Source: Deltaproteobacteria bacterium
GTDB taxonomy: Bacteria; Desulfobacterota; Binatia; HRBIN30; CADEER01
Assembly (NCBI GenBank): GCA_029262455.1
Contig: JAJCZJ010000088.1
Location: forward strand, 270,273-334,272
Length of the DNA stretch: 64,000 nt
Direction of reading: 5' to 3'
The translations under genes were made by a program, and so were the position numbers. The notes beneath the pieces are model-generated. The model ran no database searches, was not told where the DNA came from, and was given only the letters and a program-made list of their open reading frames with translations. The number at the start of each line of letters is the position of its first letter. Positions within the stretch are counted from its first letter, which is position 1. Shown in pieces: positions 3,047 to 47,280 of the stretch.

Positions 3047-4443
3047 TGCTTGTCCTCCTCCGAGGAAGATTCGGTTGCCACCCCATCACGCAGTGATCGT
3101 CCAACCAGCATCTCGCTCTCGGCCAGGCGCTGCTCTTGATCAGCCAGAGCGCGTTGGTACGCGAGACGAAAATCGAGCAGGGTGCGTTGCGCGTCGAGCA
3201 AGTCCAGTGAATCTGCCTCACCGGACTCGTACGCCGTGAAAGTCGCGGCGAGGGACTCGTTGCCTTTGGGCACCAGCCCGTTTCCGTAGAGATTGACCTT
3301 GCGCACGGCGTCCTGAAACTTGTAGAGCGCAAGAGCCACCCCGCTTGCGAGTTCGCGCTCACGGTCGGCCCTGCGTTCGCTGGCGGCAGCGCGGCGTGCT
3401 TCTGCTTCACGCACCCCGGCACCGTACTTGTTCCCCCAAACCGGTAGGTTGACTGAAAAACTGCCGATGACGGCGTCTTTGCCGTTGTCGCCGAGGCCAT
3501 CCACCGACCTCGACGCGGTGTCGATCCACTGCAGCCCAAAGGTCACATCCGGAAAGAAGTCTTTGCGCGCAAGCGCGATCGCGTGCTCTTCTTTCGCTAC
3601 CGCGGCGTCGAGCGCGCGAAGCTCAGGGCTCGTGCTGCCGAGCTGCCCAATCACACTACGCGTATCGACTGAGACCTGCGCCTCGGCGATGATCTTCGGC
3701 CACGGCAAGGCTCCACCCGGGCGATTGAGCGCAGCGTTGAGCCCCGCAACAAGCGGCCCTCGCAGCTCTTCGAGAGTCCGCTCTCGATCATCGAGTTTGC
3801 CGAGCTCGACTTGGACTTTGATCACATCGGGATACCGGCCCATGCCTACCCGATACTTGGCCAGCGCAAGCTTCTCCCAGTATCTGAGCAGCTCAATGTT
3901 CTCCCGGGTGATCGAGAGCGCCTGGCCCAGGTAGTAATATTCTGCGTAGGCCTCGGTCACTCGGTAGAACAAGCCGAGCTTCAAGGCCTCAAACCGCTCT
4001 CTCTTTTCCTCCGCTGCCGCTGCGGCGACATCGCCGCGCAGACCCCGCTTGCCGAGCCAAGGGACCATCTGCGAAGCCCCCAAACGATGGCGCTGAGCGC
4101 CCACACGGGTCTCCACGGAGCGAAGATAATAGCCGTAAGACAAGTTTGGATCCGGCAGCGCTTCCGCCTGCGGTACTCTCTCCATCGCTGCAATCCAGTC
4201 GTAGTAAGTCGCCCGAAGTCCTGCGTTGCGGAGCGCCGCGTAGCGGAGGTAGTCCTCCAGCGTCGGCTCTTCCGGGAGCGCTTGCAAATCGCTGGCGACA
4301 GCTCCCCCAGGCTCGAGAACCTCGGCGAGCGCGTGCGCGGGAGTTTGAACTTCGCTCGCCGACGCAGCGCAACTCGCCAGAACGAGGGCTCCGCCAATCA
4401 ATACCCGAATAGCTTGATTCCGGATCATTGGATGTACTCCCAA
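3043..4443 (-). CDS. Outer membrane efflux protein (TolC/CusC family) of the RND system
   Basis: 466 aa with an N-terminal signal peptide (MIRNQAIRVLIGGALVLASCAASAS) and coiled-coil Ala/Leu/Arg-rich OMF repeats. Overlaps the adaptor gene by 4 nt (ATGA), as in an operon. Confidence 0.8.
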   Translation of the reverse strand: MGVHPMIRNQAIRVLIGGALVLASCAASASEVQTPAHALAEVLEPGGAVASDLQALPEEPTLEDYLRYAALRNAGLRATYYDWIAAMERVPQAEALPDPNLSYGYYLRSVETRVGAQRHRLGASQMVPWLGKRGLRGDVAAAAAEEKRERFEALKLGLFYRVTEAYAEYYYLGQALSITRENIELLRYWEKLALAKYRVGMGRYPDVIKVQVELGKLDDRERTLEELRGPLVAGLNAALNRPGGALPWPKIIAEAQVSVDTRSVIGQLGSTSPELRALDAAVAKEEHAIALARKDFFPDVTFGLQWIDTASRSVDGLGDNGKDAVIGSFSVNLPVWGNKYGAGVREAEARRAAASERRADRERELASGVALALYKFQDAVRKVNLYGNGLVPKGNESLAATFTAYESGEADSLDLLDAQRTLLDFRLAYQRALADQEQRLAESEMLVGRSLRDGVATESSSEEDKQ

Positions 4444-4813
4444 ACCAGCTCCGCATCCATGCGATTCACGGCTATGTTTCTCATCTCGAGAAGTTGCCTC
4501 TTTCCATTGTGAATGTGTTCAGATCCCTTCCACGCAGGCACTAGGAGCTGCTCAGGTCGAAGCGACCCCACGGCCTCGGCATCTCTCCCTTTCGTCGGAG
4601 CAGTACCCCACCTTGGAAATGGCAGGGGAGTCCGATGCGTCGGCGACTTTCGTCAACGCAGAGCGAGACACTCAGCGAGAAGGGCGCACTTGTCCTTTAG
4701 ACGGAGCGACACTCTACGCAGCGGATGCACTGCGGCACCCACGGAGCCATCGCCTCCCCGTTGTCGACCCGAGCGGGGTCAACTACAGACGGATTGCGCC
4801 CGCCGTCGGCTCC

Positions 4814-5245
4814 TCAGCAGAGAATGGTCTGGAGAAGCAGGTAGCGGGGTGGAGAGTGCGAATGGGGCGCCTGGACGGGACCCTTCGCAACAAGACGTCT
4901 TCCCTCAATCGCAGTAGCAGTGAGGGGAGTTACCAAAACCGCTACCGCTGCTGGGGTTCCAAGCCCGACGGCCGCAGAGTCCGCAACTGTAACCTGGAGC
5001 GACGGCCGACAGCAGTCAGATCCGGGAGTGTGATCGTGACCGTCGGCAGGAGCCGGCACCTGGTGATCCTCACCGTGATGTCCGTCTGGCGGGACCGCCT
5101 CCGGAGCCGACGCGCAGTGGGCAAGGGGCGTTTCAGCAGCCGTACAATTCGGGCACAGGACGACCAAGTAGGGCAACCAGGCCACGACGAGTGCTACCGG
5201 GAGCAAGCGCCGGGAACGGAGTTTATGGAAACCGGTCCTCACCAT
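4814..5245 (-). CDS. Hypothetical small membrane-anchored His/Cys-rich protein upstream of the cus operon (speculative)
   Basis: Internal ATG of ORF 4814..5353 gives MVRTGFHKLRSRRLLPVALVVAWLPYLVVLCPNCTAAE...DGHHGEDHQVPAPADGHDHTPGSDCC: an n-region, a TM/signal segment, CxxC and His clusters. The C-terminal half is low complexity. Confidence 0.25.
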   Translation of the reverse strand: MVRTGFHKLRSRRLLPVALVVAWLPYLVVLCPNCTAAETPLAHCASAPEAVPPDGHHGEDHQVPAPADGHDHTPGSDCCRPSLQVTVADSAAVGLGTPAAVAVLVTPLTATAIEGRRLVAKGPVQAPHSHSPPRYLLLQTILC

Positions 5246-32781: not shown

Positions 32782-34093
32782 CAAAACGTATCTCGCGACT
32801 ACCCCGCGGAACCTGGACGTAACCAGGTTCCGCGGGGCCACCTCCGCCCTGCGGGCTGCCACGAATCTGCTGCTCGCTCTGGTACTGTTGGCGCCAGCTT
32901 CAGCTTACGGCGCCTTTGCACCAAAGACCCGTGAGATGCTGCGCAAGGCTACGTTCGTCGGCGGCGGCGAGATCCTTGCGACGTCCGAGTACGACGACGG
33001 TCGCATTGGCGTAGTCCATATTCGCATCGACGAAATGTTCAAACCGGGCAAGACCAAAGGTCCCCACAGTGTGCGCGTCGTTTCGATCACCGATGAACCG
33101 GGCGCGGTTCAACCCGAAGTCGGCGCCAAAGGGCTGCTCTTTGTCCAGCCTCTGCGACGCACCTCCTACATCGATCGACACGTGCCGGACAGCACCAGCA
33201 CCTACTCTTTCGTCGATGGACGCGATGGCTGGCGCCAAGCACGAGCCAACCAGATGGAAAAGTTGGCCGCCCCTATCCGACAGCTGGTCGCGAACAGCCG
33301 CGGAAAACAGAAAGATCCATCGGCTCAGACCGCCCAGCGCACGATTACGTTTCAGCTCATCTCTTCGCTCGACCCAATCCTGGTGCCTGACGGACTCGTC
33401 GTGCTTGCGGAACTCCCGGATCTCGCTAATTCCCTTAGTGAAGCAGAGGTCGACAGCCTCAAGGCCGCCCTCCACTCCGACACGCTGCCGACGAAAGTCC
33501 GCAAGACCGTCATCAGCGCGATCGCCGACAATCGACTCACCGTGCTTGCCGACAGCTTGCGCAAGATCGACGACACAGAGCTTCAACGTGACGCCTGGGG
33601 CGCGTTGCGCCGACTCGGGCATCCGATAAACGTCGACACTTTGCACGAAGATCTAAAAAGCGAAAAGCCGGGAGTTCGCACCGCGGCTGCTTTGGAACTT
33701 CTCGACCGGGATCCCGAAAAGGAGATCGCGACCGTGTCGAAACAGCTCCTGAAGGATCCCGATCCCGAGGTCAGGCTCGAGGTAATCGAAGCACTAGGCG
33801 CAACCGGCTCGGCACAGGCGGCTACGGTGCTCGAACCGGTCTTCTCCGACTCCGACCTGAAGCAGCGCCAAGCAACGGCGCGGGCCCTACTTGCGATCGG
33901 CGGACCCACCGCCGCAGACTCGTTTCACCGCCTTGCCTTCGAGGGTTCAATTCAAGCCCAACGGTTTGCAGTATTCGGACTGTTCTCGCTCGGCGTCGGG
34001 CGCGAGGATGGCCGCCTGCAGGACATCGCAAGACGCCACACCGACAAGAAAATCAAGGAACTGATCGAACATGGCATCGAGCACGGCCACTGA
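32735..34093 (+). CDS. Secreted HEAT-repeat (PBS-lyase-like) protein
   Basis: Signal peptide LLLALVLLAPASAYG and C-terminal HEAT-like repeats (VRTAAALELL..DPEVRLEVIEALGATG..LKQRQATARALLAIG). The first ATG (32735) overlaps the upstream gene by 47 nt; in-frame GTG 32762 or TTG 32771 are alternatives. Confidence 0.6.
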   Translation: MARPAGTRRVYRLHRSKTYLATTPRNLDVTRFRGATSALRAATNLLLALVLLAPASAYGAFAPKTREMLRKATFVGGGEILATSEYDDGRIGVVHIRIDEMFKPGKTKGPHSVRVVSITDEPGAVQPEVGAKGLLFVQPLRRTSYIDRHVPDSTSTYSFVDGRDGWRQARANQMEKLAAPIRQLVANSRGKQKDPSAQTAQRTITFQLISSLDPILVPDGLVVLAELPDLANSLSEAEVDSLKAALHSDTLPTKVRKTVISAIADNRLTVLADSLRKIDDTELQRDAWGALRRLGHPINVDTLHEDLKSEKPGVRTAAALELLDRDPEKEIATVSKQLLKDPDPEVRLEVIEALGATGSAQAATVLEPVFSDSDLKQRQATARALLAIGGPTAADSFHRLAFEGSIQAQRFAVFGLFSLGVGREDGRLQDIARRHTDKKIKELIEHGIEHGH

Positions 34094-39836: not shown

Positions 39837-39887
39837 CAATCGCCGCGCAGGAAAGTACTAGTGAAGGAACCAACAGGAGATCACTCA

Positions 39888-40868
39888 ATGGCAGTCCTGA
39901 TTCGCTCGAAGACTCCCGCAGATCTGTCCGAGCGCGACGTAACCAACGAGAAACACTACTGGCACCGCCGAGATTTTATCAAGATCGCCGGCGCAAGCGC
40001 CGCACTCGTCGGAAGTGGGTTGATCGGTTGCGAAAACGGCGGGGAGTCCGCCCAGGCGAGCGCTGAACCTCCGGCCGCCGTAACCGGCTTGACGAAATCA
40101 CCGCTGAGTACGGCTGAGGATCAGACCGACTACGCCGACGCAACGAGCTACAACAACTTCTACGAGTTCGGCACCGACAAGTCCGATCCGGCACGATACG
40201 CCCACTCGCTCGTCACCGACCCTTGGACAATTGAAATCGGCGGCGCGGTCAATAAACCCGGAAAGATCGCCCTCGAGGACCTCCTGGCGCAACACTCCCT
40301 CGAGGAACGGATCTACAGACTCCGGTGCGTCGAAGCATGGTCGATGGTCATTCCGTGGATCGGCATACCGCTGGCGTCGGTTCTCCCGCGATTTGAACCG
40401 ACCGGAAACGCGAAGTACGTCGCCTTCAAAACCCTTCACGACCCGAAACAAATGCCCGGCCAAAATCGACGCGCCCTGCAATGGCCGTACCGCGAGGGAC
40501 TTCGTATGGACGAAGCGATGCACCCTCTCACGATCCTCGCCACGGGGATGTACGGACGTGAAATGCCGAATCAGAATGGAGCCCCGCTGCGGCTGGTCGT
40601 CCCTTGGAAATACGGGTTCAAGAGTATCAAATCGATCGTCAGCATCGATTTGGTCGCGAACCAGCCTGACACCTCCTGGAACATGCAAGCCGCGCGCGAG
40701 TACGGATTCTACTCCAACGTCAACCCAGAGGTGGATCACCCGCGCTGGAGCCAGGCCAAGGAAAGACGGATCGGCGAATTCCGACGCCGTAAGACGCTGC
40801 CGTTCAACGGCTATGGGGAACAGGTCGCTTCCCTGTACAGCGGAATGGACCTCAAGAAGCACTTCTGA
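39888..40868 (+). CDS. msrP: Protein-methionine-sulfoxide reductase catalytic subunit (molybdopterin, YedY)
   Basis: Tat-like N-terminus [35 protein letters not shown] and [22 protein letters not shown]. Confidence 0.9.
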
Positions 40869-41059
40869 CTCAGATTCGTCAAAAGGCTTGCCTCCAACCA
40901 CCGCGCGGAGTTAAAGCAGAATTCGCACTCGGCATGTAACTGTCGATATCGACGGGCTCGGCCAGGTAACCGGGGGGTCCACGGGTTCTACCCTCCGCGA
41001 CACCTGCGCCGCGCCCGTCGAAGCCGGATCTCGTGACAGTCGCACTGCGAACTTGGCCC

Positions 41060-41632
41060 ATGATCGACAAACGTTCTCAACAGCTGGCCGCAGCTGCACT
41101 TGGCCTTCTCCCCGCCACCTTTCTGCTATTCCGATTTCTCACCGACTCGCTGGGCGCCAATCCGATTGAGGAGATCACACACGAGACAGGAGAGTGGGCG
41201 CTACGGCTTCTACTCCTGAGTCTCTCCATCACTCCGCTGCGCCGGATCACCGGACGCAACTCTCTGGTGCCTTTTCGCCGAACCTTCGGCCTCTTGTCTT
41301 TTTTCTACGCACTTCTGCATTTTTCGACGTGGCTCGGTCTCGATCACTTCTTCGACTGGCAAGGGATCATCGAAGACATCTTCGAGCGGCCCTACATCAC
41401 CGCCGGCTTCACCGCATTCGCGAGTCTCACTCCACTCGCCATTACCTCGACCCGGGGCTGGATTCGCAGGCTCGGCAAAAAGTGGACTCACCTGCACCGG
41501 TTGGCCTACTTCGCGGCCATCGCGGCAGTGGTTCATTTCTGGTGGCTGGTGAAGTCAGACGTCACCGAGCCGCGCTACTACGCGGCAGCGCTGGGAGTGC
41601 TCTTGGCAGCACGCCTGGTCCCGCGCCGTTAG
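41060..41632 (+). CDS. msrQ: Protein-methionine-sulfoxide reductase heme-binding subunit (YedZ)
   Basis: Ferric-reductase-like TM protein (ALRLLLLSLSITPLRR, HRLAYFAAIAAVVHFWW), paired with msrP. Confidence 0.85.
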   Translation: MIDKRSQQLAAAALGLLPATFLLFRFLTDSLGANPIEEITHETGEWALRLLLLSLSITPLRRITGRNSLVPFRRTFGLLSFFYALLHFSTWLGLDHFFDWQGIIEDIFERPYITAGFTAFASLTPLAITSTRGWIRRLGKKWTHLHRLAYFAAIAAVVHFWWLVKSDVTEPRYYAAALGVLLAARLVPRR

Positions 41633-41733: not shown

Positions 41734-43089
41734 CTAACGCCGACGCGGAGGCCTCGCGGGCGGGACCGGACGCTCCGGGCGCGGTGGCCGCTCGGGACGT
41801 TGCGGTCTTGCCGGCCGCTGTGGGCGCTCAACGCGAGCCGGCCGTTGGGCGCGAGCCGGAAGATCAGGGTGCCGGTCCTGTCGCGCCCTGGGAGGGGACG
41901 CCGGCCGAAGCCCGTCTCCATTCGTCGGTCGATGGCGGCCAGAGCCAACGCCCGCAGCCGCTCCATCCAAACCCCTGTCGGTTTCGTCAGGTCGGCCCCG
42001 CAGGGCCCCGCCACGGTGCTGTCTTGCCGGAGGATGCTTCAGCGGCGTCAACCGTTCCACCACCGGTACGGCGCCATCCAACCGCGCATCGATTCGCACT
42101 CGCTCGCCACTTTGAAGCTCGACACCGGGAGCGGCAACGTCAATCCGCACTCCTCCCACCGCCGCGAACGAACGGCCATCGATGCGCCGTACAACCGCTT
42201 CGATCTGGACCCGCTCGACTCGCCCATCAAACAGCCGGCGCGGGGCAACATGGAATTCATCGGCCTGCAGACGACCACCGATCCAACGTCCGACCACTTC
42301 GACCTCACGACCGAGGTCCGGCGAATCGCGTCCCCCGGCCCAGGAAATAACCGTGCCTCCCACCGTCCACTTCCCGACCTGCGCCGCGGTCACGACGCCG
42401 CGCACGTAGGAAGGCGCAGCTGCATCGATCCGCTCAACTCGCGAGGCAACGAGAGCCCGCTCGCCGACGCGCAGACCGCTGACGCGAACCGCTTCACCAA
42501 CACGATACTCCAACACGTCCGCCTTGCTTGGCTCGCCGGCGCGACCTTCCCAAGTCCCGGCGTCGAGACGGATCGTCTCGCCGAGCACCGTCAATTCACC
42601 GCGACTCGGATCGATCGCCGAGATCGGCCCAGACACCTCGTGGCGGACCTCAATGCGCTGTGCCTGCAAGGTACCGCCTCGGCTCGGTGACGCCACCACT
42701 TCCACCACCTGGCCGACAGCGAGATCCGCAACCCCCAGTCCTGAAACGATTGTCGTGGCGCCGTCGTAGTGAATCTCCGTACCGCCGACACAGATACTGG
42801 CGAATCCGGTCACGGTGCCGAGGACACCGACCTTGGCCGACTCGACGCCGGTCCCACCGATACCGCCTTCATCGGGTTCGTTAGGACCGCGACCGGTTCC
42901 GCCGATGCCGTCGGCGCTATCGTCTTCGATACCGGTACCGCCGACGCCGTCGGCGGTGGCTGCGATCGGGGTCAGTCGACCCCCATCGGCACACGGATTG
43001 TCGACAGCAGCGACTGACGCAACAATGGTCACGCTCACAAACGTCCACAACAACGTATACCGGGCGAGCGTCACGAACTCAGCTTTCAC
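41734..43089 (-). CDS. DUF5666-domain secreted protein with N-terminal GIGGTG repeats and a C-terminal Pro/Arg-rich tail
   Basis: Signal/TM segment, GVGGTG/GIGGTG x3, repeated VSGxIxxIDxxxGxLTVLGxxIxxDxxT modules and an RPARPQRPERPPRPERP tail. Confidence 0.6.
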   Translation of the reverse strand: MKAEFVTLARYTLLWTFVSVTIVASVAAVDNPCADGGRLTPIAATADGVGGTGIEDDSADGIGGTGRGPNEPDEGGIGGTGVESAKVGVLGTVTGFASICVGGTEIHYDGATTIVSGLGVADLAVGQVVEVVASPSRGGTLQAQRIEVRHEVSGPISAIDPSRGELTVLGETIRLDAGTWEGRAGEPSKADVLEYRVGEAVRVSGLRVGERALVASRVERIDAAAPSYVRGVVTAAQVGKWTVGGTVISWAGGRDSPDLGREVEVVGRWIGGRLQADEFHVAPRRLFDGRVERVQIEAVVRRIDGRSFAAVGGVRIDVAAPGVELQSGERVRIDARLDGAVPVVERLTPLKHPPARQHRGGALRGRPDETDRGLDGAAAGVGSGRHRPTNGDGLRPASPPRARQDRHPDLPARAQRPARVERPQRPARPQRPERPPRPERPVPPARPPRRR

Positions 43090-43948
43090 TCTCGTCTTGC
43101 GAATCCGGCTTCATATCCTCGGAGAAGAAGTAGACGCCGAAATTGATTCGATGTTTTGCCCCGTCCTGCTCGCCATCGCGCCGTTGGAGCTCGGCAGCGC
43201 GCTCGTTCACCGCTCGCAATCCCCGCATCCCCTCTGTGCGCGCAAGCTCTTCGAGTTCACGCACTGACTCGGCGCTTAGATTGTTGTAGTAGACACTTCG
43301 CTCGAGCAGCGGATCGCCTTCGGCCAACAGATTGTGCGCGCCTGCGGCGATGTGATCGTGAAGGTTGCGACCGAAGTAGTAGGAGAGTTCCTCTTCGCCC
43401 TGGGCCGGGACAAAGGCGTCCACGTCGAGATGCACGACGTCCTCGCCATCCACATGCACCAAGCCCAGCCGCTCCCATTCATCGAGGACAACGCGGGGTC
43501 GAATGTCCGTACTGACCGAACGAACCAACGTCTCGAACGTTGCAGGTTTCGCCTCGGCGGACGCGTAAGCAAGGGCCCGCGGCGCTCCCTGAGGGTCGAC
43601 GTACTCCGGCAACGTCGTCCAACGCGAGACCAGCTGAACCCCGAGAGTCGCACTCTTCGGAGCCCGGAACGCGGGCGAAGCACGTCGGCGCAAACGCTTC
43701 ACCTCGCGCCGGTGAACGCCCGTCAATAAGCTGACCCGACTATCCGTCTGCGGCTTTCCCTCGATGCGAAAGTCGTTGCTCGCCACATCGACGTAAACCC
43801 ATCGGAGCAGGTCGGCGAAGTTCGTGTACGGAATCGACCGAGCAACCAAGAGCCGTACGAGAGGCCGCAACATTCTGCGCAATGCCCGCATCAGGGGCGC
43901 GCCTTCGTCGCTTTGAACTGCTGTTGGCCTCTCCATCCTTCGTTCCAC
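43079..43948 (-). CDS. Hypothetical conserved protein
   Basis: 289-aa ORF with coding-like composition, co-directional with the DUF5666 gene and overlapping it by 11 nt. Confidence 0.5.
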   Translation of the reverse strand: MERRMERPTAVQSDEGAPLMRALRRMLRPLVRLLVARSIPYTNFADLLRWVYVDVASNDFRIEGKPQTDSRVSLLTGVHRREVKRLRRRASPAFRAPKSATLGVQLVSRWTTLPEYVDPQGAPRALAYASAEAKPATFETLVRSVSTDIRPRVVLDEWERLGLVHVDGEDVVHLDVDAFVPAQGEEELSYYFGRNLHDHIAAGAHNLLAEGDPLLERSVYYNNLSAESVRELEELARTEGMRGLRAVNERAAELQRRDGEQDGAKHRINFGVYFFSEDMKPDSQDESES

Positions 43949-43988
43949 TCGATCTTCCTACCATGGAGATTTTTCTTATTCTAGATTG

Positions 43989-44038
43989 ACGTGGGACATT
44001 ATTCCACATACAAGTACGGCGTGGGATAAAATCCCACG
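43989..44038. promoter_or_regulatory. Operator-like site: half-site ACGTGGGA (43989-43996) plus perfect inverted repeat ACGTGGGA-TAAAA-TCCCACGT (~44018-44038) in an AT-richer divergent intergenic region
   Basis: Seen directly in the sequence: 8-bp arms, 5-bp spacer, ~65 nt upstream of the ATG at 44102. Confidence 0.45.
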
Positions 44039-44101
44039 TAGAACCGAGGGGTCGGCATGGTGCCGGCGCCGCAGGACAACTAGCCCCAGGAGGTATTGGG
44101 A

Positions 44102-44527
44102 ATGAAAATCAGTATTCGAGGACTCGCTCTGATCAGTTTGGCAGTGGCCGCACTACTCGCGACACCTGCATTCGCACAGGACGGAATCGACAATGAGTGC
44201 GTCGCGTCCTGTCGCGACGAACACCGCGACTGTCGATTCGACGCCCGCGAGGCTGCCTCGCAATGCCTCGAAGAGGCCGGTTGCACGGCCCTACGCGAGG
44301 ACTACCGAGCCGCGTGCTTCTCCGACGACCGCGACGAAGACGTCTGCGCAGCCGCTCGCGGTGCTTACCGTGAATGCAAAGAGCCTTGCCGAGACGAACA
44401 ACGCGACGCGGCCGGTGAGTGCCGTGACGAAATCACCTCGTGCCTGGCAGACGAATGCGGAATCGACGAACCACTACGACGCCCTGGTCGTCGCGGTGGG
44501 CGCCGAGGGTTCGGCGGCAGACGCTAG
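44102..44527 (+). CDS. Small secreted acidic Cys-rich protein with a C-terminal RGG-like basic tail
   Basis: AGGAGG lies 8 nt upstream. Signal peptide MKISIRGLALISLAVAALLATPAFA, 12 Cys in repeated CRDE/CxxEC contexts, and the tail RRPGRRGGRRGFGGRR. Confidence 0.55.
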   Translation: MKISIRGLALISLAVAALLATPAFAQDGIDNECVASCRDEHRDCRFDAREAASQCLEEAGCTALREDYRAACFSDDRDEDVCAAARGAYRECKEPCRDEQRDAAGECRDEITSCLADECGIDEPLRRPGRRGGRRGFGGRR

Positions 44528-44542
44528 CCGAACCACCCACTC

Positions 44543-44590
44543 CAGCCGGGGCGGTGCTGCCCCCTCCCTGATAAGCGCCGCCCCGGCTGG
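44543..44590 (+). terminator. Strong GC hairpin (13-bp perfect arms CCAGCCGGGGCGG / CCGCCCCGGCTGG) between the Cys-rich gene and the outer-membrane-barrel gene
   Basis: Seen directly in the sequence. There is no clear U-tract, so it may be an attenuator or stabiliser rather than a full terminator. Confidence 0.4.
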
Positions 44591-44669
44591 AGCCCCCCCA
44601 ACGGCCTCGGCCGAAAGAAAATGTACGCAACGATTTGAACCACACCCGACCGACTGACAGGTTGCCGGG

Positions 44670-45446
44670 ATGTCGATGATGGTAGCGATAGCGTTCGTGC
44701 TCCTGTCATCTGCAACCTGCATTCTCGCCGACGAGGAAGAGGTGGGTAGCGCGCTACAACTGTCCGGCAGCCTCGGCTACCACTATTCGACGGGAAAGTA
44801 CGGAAGCAGCGAACGAACAGACATCTCGTTCGTGCCGCTCACCCTGACCGCCCGCGATGTCAGCTGGATGGCGCGCCTAACACTTCCGTACATCAACGTA
44901 AGTGGACTGCCCGCGCTCGACGGGACGGCGGTCGGGGACACGGTCGTCACCGGCACCGGAAGCGGTATCGGCGACATTGTCCTCGAAGGCGTCTACACCG
45001 TCACACCTCTCGAAGACTGGATGCCGTACTTGGATGTTGGCGCACGCGTCAAGTTCCCAACCGCCGATGACGAGCGCGGCCTGGGAACCGGCAAATTCGA
45101 CTATCAACTCAATCTCGAAGTCGCACGCGTCTTCGGCAACGTGACACCGTTCGCTTCCGTCGGCTATCGCTTCGTCGGCGACCCCGCCAGCTTCGACCTA
45201 CGCAATGTTTGGCTCGCTTCGGTCGGCACTGTGCTCCAGGTCGCCTCGGGCGTAAACGCTGGGGCGTTTCTCTTTTACCAACAGTCAGCCTCGACGACAT
45301 CCGAAGACCAACTCGACATCATGCCGTACATCGACTGGAAACCGACGACCGACTGGTCGATCTCGCTCTACACGACCGCCGGCCTACAAGACGGCAGCCC
45401 GGACTTCGGTACCGGAGTGCAGCTGACCTATTCCGTTGGTCGATAG
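44670..45446 (+). CDS. Outer-membrane beta-barrel protein (MetA-pathway/phenol-degradation-like OMP family)
   Basis: Signal peptide, alternating amphipathic beta-strands, a C-terminal aromatic-rich last strand (QLTYSVGR) and family-like LSGSLGYHYSTGKY. Confidence 0.6.
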   Translation: MSMMVAIAFVLLSSATCILADEEEVGSALQLSGSLGYHYSTGKYGSSERTDISFVPLTLTARDVSWMARLTLPYINVSGLPALDGTAVGDTVVTGTGSGIGDIVLEGVYTVTPLEDWMPYLDVGARVKFPTADDERGLGTGKFDYQLNLEVARVFGNVTPFASVGYRFVGDPASFDLRNVWLASVGTVLQVASGVNAGAFLFYQQSASTTSEDQLDIMPYIDWKPTTDWSISLYTTAGLQDGSPDFGTGVQLTYSVGR

Positions 45447-45448
45447 AA

Positions 45449-47035
45449 TTAGCGACCTCGCTTCTTCTTCGCCGCAGCTCTCGTTCCTTTTCGTTTCGCT
45501 GCGGTTTTCTTCGTCGCTACCCTTTTCTTCGCGCTACGCACCGGCAACTGCCGCACCTTCTTAGCCCCTTTGGACCCCGCCGCCTTGGCCACTTTTGGCC
45601 CGTCCGCAGCATTCTCCCGCTTTGCTACCGGGCGCAGCGATGCAAGTTTGAGCAGTGCCTGAAAAGCCGAGCGAACCTCCTGAACAAAGACCGGAAGATC
45701 TGTGACCAGGTCCGGATCACAATTGAAGCCCCAAAAAATCTTGCCGTTGTAACTGACCAGCGCGATCCCAAGCCCGGTATTCTCCAACAACGGGACTTGA
45801 GGAAACATCTCCAAGAGCTCCGCCCCCATGTTGTAGAGCGGCATCTGGGGGCCCGGAACATTTGTCACGATCATGTTGATGGGGCCGGAAGTAGCCTGAG
45901 AACCCAGTGATAGCAGCTGGGCCGGGGCCCATTCGGCAGCGGCCATGAGCATTTGCACGCCGAGCGCTTGCTTGGAGGTCTTCAACTCCTCGGTGCGCTT
46001 ATGCAGCGCCCGCAACTGTTCTAGGGGATCGGCACAGCCGAGTGGCAGCTGAAGAATCCAGCTCGAAACCTTATTGCCCAGTTGTCCTCGATCTTCTTCG
46101 CGGCGAACACTCACAGGCGCTGACACGCGAAAATCGAGCGAGGCAGGGTCCACCCTGCGCCGCACCATGTAGCTGCGAACCGCTCCGGTGACCGTCGCCA
46201 AGACGACATCGTTGACGGTGCACCCCAGCGCACGCCGTACAGACTTGACCTCCTCGAGATCCATCTGCAGCCAGTCGAGATAACGGTGCGGTCCGAGTTC
46301 GCCATTCAGCGGCGTATCCGACGCACCGCTGATCGCATATCCCGCCAGCTCCTGCAGAGCCTTCAGCCTCAGCGTCAGATCGTCGCGGATCGACCCCGCC
46401 TCATCGGTGAGCGAACGGATCCCACGCAGTGCTTGCAGCGGGAGACTCAAACGCCGTGCCAGCTGATCGGCGAAAAGCTCAGATCCGCGCGGTGCAGGGC
46501 GCGGGATGTACGGCAACGGGTCCGGCAGACTTCGATCGCGCGTCGTCGACATCATGATCTGCGCCAAGTCGACGCCAGAGCTGCCGTCGATCATGCAATG
46601 GTGAATCTTGGTCACGACTGCGAAGCGATCATCCTCCAGCCCCTCGATAACCCAATACTCCCAAAGCGGCTTTCCACGATCCAACTGCTGCGCCATGATC
46701 CTCGCCCCGAGGCGCTTCAGCTGATCGATCGATCCAGGGCGGGGCAGGCTCGTATGGCGAACGTGGTACTCTAAATCAAAACGATCATCGTCGACCCAAA
46801 CCGGAACACCCGCGACCGGAACCCACTGCAAGACTTGCCGATAACGCGGGATGAGATGCAGTACGGCCTCGATGGAGCGTCGAATCGAGGCGAAGTCGAT
46901 GCCACCTTCCGCGGTGCGCAACGGTCCAGCTTCGTAGATCGAGGTCGCCGCCACGTGCATGTGGACGTTGGGCCTCTCCATGGCCAAGAACGAGTGGTCC
47001 TGGGCCGACAATCGGTCGAAGCTATAACTGGGCAT
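45449..47035 (-). CDS. Wax ester synthase/diacylglycerol acyltransferase (WS/DGAT) with a Lys/Ala-rich histone-like C-terminal tail
   Basis: Catalytic HHCMIDGSSG (HHxxxDG) and WS/DGAT N- and C-terminal blocks. A ~55-aa tail (KAAGSKGAKKVRQ...KKTAAKRKGTRAAAKKKRGR). GGAGG RBS before the ATG at 47035. Confidence 0.85.
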   Translation of the reverse strand: MPSYSFDRLSAQDHSFLAMERPNVHMHVAATSIYEAGPLRTAEGGIDFASIRRSIEAVLHLIPRYRQVLQWVPVAGVPVWVDDDRFDLEYHVRHTSLPRPGSIDQLKRLGARIMAQQLDRGKPLWEYWVIEGLEDDRFAVVTKIHHCMIDGSSGVDLAQIMMSTTRDRSLPDPLPYIPRPAPRGSELFADQLARRLSLPLQALRGIRSLTDEAGSIRDDLTLRLKALQELAGYAISGASDTPLNGELGPHRYLDWLQMDLEEVKSVRRALGCTVNDVVLATVTGAVRSYMVRRRVDPASLDFRVSAPVSVRREEDRGQLGNKVSSWILQLPLGCADPLEQLRALHKRTEELKTSKQALGVQMLMAAAEWAPAQLLSLGSQATSGPINMIVTNVPGPQMPLYNMGAELLEMFPQVPLLENTGLGIALVSYNGKIFWGFNCDPDLVTDLPVFVQEVRSAFQALLKLASLRPVAKRENAADGPKVAKAAGSKGAKKVRQLPVRSAKKRVATKKTAAKRKGTRAAAKKKRGR

Positions 47036-47280
47036 GACGTACCTCCTAGTGAATCGAGCCGCATGAACGACCAAACACCGATCAGCATCTCCTGAACAGG
47101 CAGAAGAATCATGGCGGCGCCACGCTGGCAAGCCACCGATCCGGCCGTCCAATCCATTATGCTCCTCCTGACAAGACCTGAATATCTCTTCACGACCGGG
47201 CTACCTGCGATTTCATGTGGACGACCAGCAAATGCGCCGGTAGTTTCTAAAGCGTTTGGCTTCCCAAACACCGATCCCCC

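Follow-up and report, generated by a model that had tools for sequence, protein, structure and literature searches.

Autoregulated helix-turn-helix repressors encoded divergently from their targets, such as TetR/tetA and the ArsR-, MarR- and IclR-type loci, have a characteristic layout, with a divergent regulator gene, two or three inverted repeats of ~19 bp in the shared intergenic region, one site between the -35 and -10 boxes, one at the transcription start, and sites that also lie in the regulator's own promoter region. Here we describe a locus that has these features in common with them in a 64,000-nucleotide stretch from a Deltaproteobacteria bacterium of the Binatia (contig JAJCZJ010000088.1, positions 270,273 to 334,272; hereafter the window). 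Our analysis suggested, at a probability of about 0.65, that the region 43937-44101 of the window controls a divergent four-gene unit through two 19-bp operators bound by a DUF6502 protein (DUF, domain of unknown function). The unit would comprise the genes for DUF6502 and a DUF5666-repeat protein on one side, and those for a cysteine-rich (Cys-rich) putative secreted protein and an outer-membrane protein (OMP) on the other (Table 1). DUF6502 matched none of the TetR, ArsR, MarR and IclR types by sequence and resembled them weakly by fold; it differs from them in its length of ~285 aa and in a sizeable C-terminal part that is highly conserved, and its binding to DNA is predicted. The name DUF6502 was absent from the searchable literature. 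The regulatory logic is familiar; the protein family, the operator and the regulon appear to be undescribed.

The control region between the DUF6502 and Cys-rich genes was AT-rich, and a preliminary description of this DNA had rightly singled it out on that account: the 80-bp segment from 43953 was the GC minimum of the whole window (39%, against a window mean of 61%). The same description had reported a half-site and a perfect palindrome ACGTGGGA-N5-TCCCACGT within it. A perfect inverted repeat was indeed found (site 2), with different limits, because base 44019 is G and leaves the claimed outermost A/T pair non-complementary; site 2 can be read either as CGTGGGA-TAAAA-TCCCACG or as 8-bp arms CGTGGGAT/ATCCCACG flanking AAA. 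The supposed half-site was instead a complete second operator (site 1), a degenerate palindrome with two right-arm mismatches, 30 bp from site 2. Scoring with a position weight matrix built from related loci gave 25.9 bits for site 2, the best in the window, and 24.0 bits for site 1, compared with 8.2 bits for the third-best position and 20.7 bits for the best of 50 shuffles, and the weight-matrix scan returned no further match elsewhere in the 64-kb window. Both sites lie 55–95 bp from the DUF6502 start codon.

To place these sites in a wider context, one genome per species was scanned for DUF6502, which yielded 80 loci from Binatia, Myxococcota, Marinimicrobia-type metagenome-assembled genomes (MAGs) and alpha-, beta- and gamma-proteobacteria including the Pseudomonas putida group, those closest to the window being Candidatus Binatia MAGs. 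Using a pattern derived from the window alone (CGTGGGA-N5-TCCCACG, at most two mismatches), we counted 75 occurrences in the 23.8 kb directly upstream of DUF6502 genes versus 31 in the other 608 kb of these 80 species, a 62-fold enrichment, and the symmetrised weight matrix had the consensus yGTGGGAAwwwTTCCCACr. The reciprocal test used 120 metagenome contigs fetched with the exact motif CGTGGGAA-N3-TTCCCACG. DUF6502 was encoded on 36 of them, with its 5' end no more than 600 bp from the site in 30, and these linked sites showed an A/T central triplet (32/36), a second site nearby (19/36) and a local GC dip. The 84 unlinked sites had mostly random central triplets and no local GC dip, a second site accompanied 5 of them, and most of these occurrences look like chance matches. 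These results showed that DUF6502 loci of many bacterial phyla share yGTGGGAAwwwTTCCCACr as a conserved cis-element. The palindrome, which the preliminary description took for the operator of a dimeric transcription factor, behaves as one, since far from being unique to the window it is conserved as an inverted repeat upstream of orthologues.

The orthologous control regions of other loci with the Cys-rich gene shared this arrangement. Three sites were present in L002, L003 and L004 and two in L007, and in all four TTGACG was fused to the equivalent of site 1 (the middle site), with a TAnnnT-like box 17 nt further on. The third operator of the orthologues (site 0), ~43 bp from site 1, has decayed in the window, where the equivalent position scored -2.5 bits or less. 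That the inverted repeats are RNA structures, for example a 5' stem-loop on the Cys-rich mRNA, or chance palindromes is hardly credible. With a transcription start near 44020, site 2 would indeed give a 9-bp stem-loop at the mRNA 5' end; however, it is the sequence GTGGGAA/TTCCCAC and not the pairing that is conserved, degenerate copies retain the half-site consensus rather than complementarity, two or three copies occur in either gene orientation across loci, and Rfam gave no match. Chance is excluded by the shuffles and the 62-fold enrichment.

We therefore asked which protein might recognize the motif. The preliminary description had found no obvious cognate regulator in the window; yet the divergent neighbour encodes DUF6502, and the motif tracks DUF6502 across phyla. 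The protein matched Pfam PF20112 at 115 bits (cut-off 27, E 3.6e-33) over profile positions 5-264 of 268, and at least 2984 homologues were found at E ≤1e-5, of which the best 120 listed were 52–75% identical to the window protein. Among the genes conserved with the motif, only that of DUF6502 lacked an N-terminal signal or hydrophobic anchor, and the product is predicted to be cytoplasmic. It contains an invariant N-terminal helix-turn-helix-like segment, and its structural model weakly resembled winged-helix DNA-binding domains. The C-terminal half was strongly conserved, including an invariant FGRNLHDH and adjacent residues, and its model was poor; signal sensing would most naturally reside there. 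By sequence, DUF6502 fell into no known DNA-binding family, and no solved structural relatives were found for it, for DUF5666 or for the OMP. Judged from sequence, the adjacent DUF6502 is likely the cognate autoregulating repressor of the envelope-protein unit.

It is unlikely that the palindromes are genuine operators of an unlinked regulator and DUF6502 just one of its targets, with a different role in the cytoplasm. That reading would suit a protein that belongs to no known DNA-binding family by sequence and whose fold likeness to DNA-binding domains is weak, and it could draw on the 84 of 120 exact metagenome motifs that had no DUF6502 on the same contig piece, although most of these look like chance. 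Crp/Fnr-type genes were divergent in a few Rhodocyclaceae and gamma-proteobacterial loci, but no regulator gene other than DUF6502 was conserved beside the motif in the 80 genomes, the Crp-type neighbours were confined to a handful of loci, and TGTGA-N6-TCACA misfits TGTGGGA-N5-TCCCACA. The established consensus of CRP, TGTGA-N6-TCACA, and that of FNR, TTGAT-N4-ATCAA, differ in geometry from the sites here, where GTGGGAA-N3-TTCCCAC amounts to TGTG-N11-CACA. Moreover, the association of the motif with DUF6502 holds in at least five phyla, as expected of an autoregulated factor and difficult to reconcile with a global regulator acting in trans.

A variant of the half-site, GTGT(G/A), replaces GTGGGAA ~70–370 bp upstream of DUF6502 in L019-L021, L044, L037, L038, L051 and L052, and in these loci the putative recognition helix has HRR(D/E) instead of HRK(D). 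The divergent gene encodes a multihaem cytochrome in two of them, L037 and L051. All eight loci with exclusively GTGT(G/A)-type sites have HRR(D/E) in the second helix of DUF6502, and none of the HRK loci has such sites exclusively. This co-variation between half-site and second helix is suggestive at best.

The positions of the two sites relative to the candidate promoter pointed to repression. Site 1 fills the 17-nt spacer between a candidate -35 box (TTGACG) and a candidate -10 box (TACAAG) of the Cys-rich gene, a distance kept in the orthologues, and site 2 falls at or just past the predicted transcription start. A promoter scan reported another pair, TCCACA-18-TAAAAT at 44003-44032, which is likewise overlapped by the operator sites. 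Since the promoter is placed by consensus only, and since many loci have two or three sites over ~100 bp between divergent genes, from where one side could be activated and the other repressed, DUF6502 might instead act as an activator or dual regulator; we regard this as rather improbable, because a site inside the -35/-10 spacer and another at the predicted start are positions typical of repressors, and a 17-nt spacer is not the over-long spacer of 19–20 bp that marks MerR-type activators.

The regulated unit was larger than the two-gene module originally proposed, consisting of four divergent genes, DUF6502-DUF5666 and Cys-rich-OMP. Counting neighbour genes in the 80 genomes by tblastn, we found DUF5666 directly behind DUF6502 in 59 and a MetA-like barrel near DUF6502 in 48, usually downstream of DUF5666 within one operon, whereas the Cys-rich gene occurred in six, all Binatia-like, and was followed by the barrel gene in five, as in the window. 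DUF6502, DUF5666 and the OMP were the only genes conserved with the motif. In each readable contig with a Cys-rich gene, that gene was divergent from DUF6502 and DUF5666 followed behind DUF6502; in those reaching far enough, the barrel gene lay downstream of the Cys-rich gene. The widely conserved core is thus DUF6502 and DUF5666, usually joined by the OMP, and the Cys-rich gene is a lineage-specific addition. All three non-regulator products of the unit are predicted to be exported, in agreement with the initial view of the downstream genes as encoding exported envelope proteins.

Additional operators in the loci preceded genes for other exported proteins, often highly charged and of low complexity. 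In Pseudomonas an operator stood ahead of a protein rich in Gly and His that contains (GDDHGNHVGGEP)n repeats, in other gamma-proteobacteria ahead of lipoproteins with Asp/Ser tails, in other loci ahead of secreted proteins with QEDRRADR or ERAERPER repeats, in some lineages ahead of multihaem cytochromes, and in Gallionella-like loci ahead of a FecR-domain protein followed by a TPR/SlipAM barrel. The Pseudomonas cases were L045, L048, L063, L066, L069, L076, L078, L081, L082 and L086, where a near-perfect operator lies 800–1040 bp upstream of DUF6502 and precedes the gene of the secreted Gly-rich repeat protein, just upstream of DUF6502-DUF5666-OMP. The arrangement in the window is a lineage-specific (Binatia-type) rearrangement of this widespread envelope regulon. 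On balance, and by a narrower margin of confidence than for the control of the unit itself, we favour the view that DUF6502 would found a family of DNA-binding regulators not described before, whose thousands of members would range from the Binatia and Myxococcota to Pseudomonas putida. The operator of the family would be yGTGGGAAwwwTTCCCACr, and its regulon an envelope system of DUF5666, the MetA-like barrel and secreted proteins particular to each lineage, which are extremely charged or rich in Cys or His.

Between the Cys-rich and OMP genes, a strong hairpin without a U-tract had been noted before; it proved larger than described, with a 19-bp stem rather than 13-bp arms. It begins 13 nt past the Cys-rich stop codon, and the region around it had a folding z-score of -5.5 relative to shuffles. 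Hairpins directly after the Cys-rich stop occurred in four orthologous loci (the window, L002, L003 and L004) with unrelated sequences, and the intergenic hairpin is therefore a conserved feature of the locus. With intrinsic terminators it has in common a GC-rich stem-loop right after the stop, conserved in position and not in sequence; it differs in CCCCCCCAACGG following the stem instead of a U-tract, in its 15-nt loop and in the unusually long stem, and a terminator scan did not report it. A known RNA element was rejected, since Rfam, searched with 43800-44800, returned nothing on the hairpin beyond a miRNA match below threshold, and a REP-like repeat was rejected because the hairpin arm is single-copy in the window. 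Since its position is conserved and its sequence is not, the hairpin may be a terminator or attenuator, or a stabiliser of the mRNA 3' end; partial termination, as first suggested, is plausible. The sole other comparable hairpin in the 64 kb (32802-32837; 15-bp perfect arms, 6-nt loop, dG -33 kcal/mol) lies 20 nt past the stop of a 1338-aa open reading frame (ORF), also without a U-tract, and GC hairpins of this kind may be the usual terminators of the organism.

Alternatively, the hairpin could be a full terminator or serve mRNA stability only, and the OMP gene could have its own unregulated promoter, so that the Cys-rich and OMP genes form separate transcription units. The stability of the stem (dG -44 kcal/mol), the long spacers (142 nt in the window; in L002 and L004, where further hairpins occur, ~196 nt), the peroxidase gene between the two genes in L003 and the location of the OMP gene elsewhere in most other phyla, behind DUF5666, are in keeping with this. 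However, no promoter-like site or operator was found in the spacer between the two genes, their order and strand were kept in five of the six Cys-rich genomes, and absence of a U-tract usually lowers termination efficiency; we therefore consider separate units somewhat doubtful and retain the four-gene unit.

Based on these observations, the control region could work as follows. A DUF6502 dimer would bind both sites through its invariant N-terminal helix-turn-helix. With site 1 in the TTGACG-N17-TACAAG spacer and site 2 over the start, binding would stand in the way of RNA polymerase, and the Cys-rich/OMP transcript would be repressed. The distance of the sites from the DUF6502 start codon makes autoregulation of the DUF6502-DUF5666 operon probable, and binding would probably repress that operon as well. 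A signal sensed by the conserved C-terminal part (FGRNLHDH) would release the repressor, upon which the strong ribosome-binding site, an earlier claim borne out by the Shine-Dalgarno box AGGAGG 8 nt ahead of the ATG, would yield the Cys-rich protein in quantity. The hairpin would end or attenuate most transcripts, so that the barrel would be made at a lower level and outnumbered by the small protein.

Several points weigh against this reading. A site of at least 20.7 bits was present within 420 bp upstream of DUF6502 in 61 of the 80 loci, a count that is partly circular in that the weight matrix was built from the same loci (the 75-versus-31 count with the window pattern is free of this circularity), and the remaining 19 loci had no high-scoring site within that distance. 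The link between DUF6502 and the motif is one of association, and repression rather than activation is suggested only by where the sites lie. The promoter hexamers are matches to the consensus, and the -10 box TACAAG is a poor one. The co-variation of half-site and second helix comes from at most two independent clades, and the window protein itself has HRRE, yet its sites are of the GGG type. Lacking a U-tract, the hairpin falls outside the classical definition of an intrinsic terminator, and the failure to find a separate OMP promoter excludes none.

The Cys-rich protein matched its first characterization as a 141-aa product with a signal-like N-terminus, 12 Cys, an acidic core and an RGG-like tail. 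The signal-peptide-like segment spans ~25 aa (…TPAFA/QDG, the slash marking its end), the core has an isoelectric point of 4.2, and the basic Arg/Gly tail reads RRPGRRGGRRGFGGRR. Two repeats of ECxxxCRDExRD…C…CL indicated an internal duplication (alignment score 66; shuffles mean 33, maximum 63), and the Cys spacings were 3, 6, 10, 5, 10, 9, 9, 3, 10, 6 and 4. An AlphaFold2 model was all-helical, with a predicted local distance difference test score >90 in the core. A word search recovered seven proteins of the family, in which the 12 Cys were invariant, and a profile search of 1.84 billion representatives gave 128 clusters, some with two tandem domains; Pfam, NCBIfam and PDB returned no significant match. 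We interpret the protein, which belongs to a small unannotated family, as helical, probably stapled by disulfides and located in the periplasm or at the cell surface. The metal or redox binding first proposed for it gained no direct support, and either activity is possible but unsupported.

We further compared the Cys-rich protein with described small helical proteins. CHCH or twin-Cx9C proteins (PET191, NDUFS5 and Cox17-like) are eukaryotic, act in the mitochondrial intermembrane space and are disulfide-stapled helical hairpins; the protein has in common with them Cys pairs 9–10 apart on predicted antiparallel helices. Its spacings include one C-x9-C-x9-C stretch, the others being x10, and the model is helical. 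The database scores that hint at this group were all sub-threshold (Pfam PF10203 Pet191_N, 14.9 bits against a cut-off of 24.4, E 0.032; NDUFS5 in the PDB search, E 0.28), and the protein differs in carrying its 12 Cys in two repeats that also contain CxxxC and Cx6C, and in being a bacterial protein that carries a Sec-type signal peptide and combines a very acidic core with a basic RGG tail. CpxP, Spy and ZraP, which are induced by envelope signals, are likewise small, secreted, all-helical hairpin proteins, and ZraP and Spy were among the non-significant fold matches; they lack the 12-Cys framework and gave no significant match in sequence or structure.

An operator common to the whole Cys-rich family was rejected, as four distant members (L088-L092) had no upstream site on their short contigs; only the close subfamily is linked to DUF6502. 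One distant member without a DUF6502 operator (L091, 113-1757) heads an apparent operon with two more genes. One of their products contains LSEDQ, which resembles, by eye, the LTXXQ motif of CpxP/Spy; the other has repeated DxDGDGxLSxSE, resembling EF-hands, and a Gly/Arg end like that of the window protein.

Regarding the remaining products, the N terminus of the DUF5666 protein is a hydrophobic anchor or signal; three G(I/V)GGTG motifs stand ahead of its beta-rich repeats, and its C-terminal tail is Pro/Arg-rich (RPQRPARPQRPERPPRPERP). GIGGTG also occurs in unrelated DUF6502 neighbours, namely Gallionella-like FecR-domain proteins and small lipoproteins. The DUF5666 start and the DUF6502 stop share 11 nt, an arrangement suggestive of translational coupling; in the literature, DUF5666 appeared in tables only. 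The OMP, earlier assigned to the MetA-pathway-like barrels, is a predicted barrel that did match Pfam PF13557 (Phenol_MetA_deg), though as a borderline case 0.2 bit under the cut-off (21.8 versus 22.0 bits, E 2.2e-4, profile positions 49-240 of 242). Its orthologues in L002-type and L004-L006 loci also matched PF13557, and that in L003 did so weakly. The OMP resembles the members of this family in its size of ~250–270 aa, its signal peptide and the profile match; the family is named for its occurrence in aromatic-degradation clusters, and the literature on the 'MetA-pathway of phenol degradation' concerns catabolic clusters, not the DUF6502/DUF5666 module; because the context of the window OMP is this module and not a catabolic cluster, phenol uptake is not to be assumed.

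Table 1 Features of the DUF6502 locus in the window.
Feature	Position	Strand	Description
DUF5666-repeat protein gene	41734-43089	-	451 aa; PF18914, 68.8 bits against a cut-off of 27, two matched stretches
DUF6502 gene	43079-43936	-	285 aa, or 289 aa from an alternative GTG start at 43948
Candidate -35 box, Cys-rich gene promoter	43986-43991	+	TTGACG; same fusion to site 1 in all five Cys-rich-type loci, a consensus-level inference
Operator site 1	43990-44008	.	CGTGGGAcattaTTCCACA; degenerate palindrome
Candidate -10 box	44009-44014	+	TACAAG; orthologues have TATATT, TACAAC or TATTCT at equal distance
Operator site 2	44020-44038	.	CGTGGGAtaaaaTCCCACG; perfect palindrome
Shine-Dalgarno box	44088-44093	+	AGGAGG, ahead of the ATG at 44102
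Cys-rich gene	44102-44527	+	141 aa; putative secreted, acidic
Hairpin	44540-44592	+	stem 44540-44558/44574-44592, 19 bp (15 perfect pairs), 15-nt loop, dG -44 kcal/mol
OMP gene (Phenol_MetA_deg type)	44670-45446	+	258 aa; Pfam PF13557 match

The surroundings of the unit showed further features. On one side, msrP and msrQ (periplasmic methionine-sulfoxide reductase, NCBIfam equivalogs; 39861-41632, plus strand) adjoin the DUF5666 gene in convergent orientation, and in the two closest Binatia-like loci an MsrQ-like ORF (L008) and an MsrP-like one (L009) lie beside the module; this adjacency could be plain synteny or a hint of oxidative envelope stress. On the other, a wax-ester synthase/DGAT gene (45449-47152, minus strand) is convergent with the OMP gene, and its product has a ~60-aa Lys/Ala-rich C-terminal tail (…KVAKAAGSKGAKKVRQLPVRSAKKRVATKKTAAKRKGTRAAAKKKRGR) resembling histone H1-like or phasin-type basic tails. 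In L003 the gene inserted between the Cys-rich and OMP genes (3608-5218) encodes an An_peroxidase (animal haem peroxidase) and a SnoaL-like gene follows the OMP gene; L029 has homologues of both beside the module.

These results change the annotation of the window from an isolated two-gene oddity to a version of a conserved module. The preliminary description had correctly recognized an operator-controlled envelope module with an intergenic hairpin, and had overlooked the adjacent candidate regulator, the second complete operator and how far the unit extends. For DUF6502, a domain of unknown function with at least ~3000 sequence clusters, the analysis suggests a concrete, testable role together with a motif, a probable autoregulated layout and a first regulon, and the system is also present in culturable strains of the Pseudomonas putida group, where it is experimentally tractable. 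Nearly all members of the regulon are exported proteins that lack annotation, for which cation or mineral handling at the cell surface is a possible role, and the signal to which it responds could reveal an unrecognised envelope function widespread in soil, groundwater and marine bacteria.

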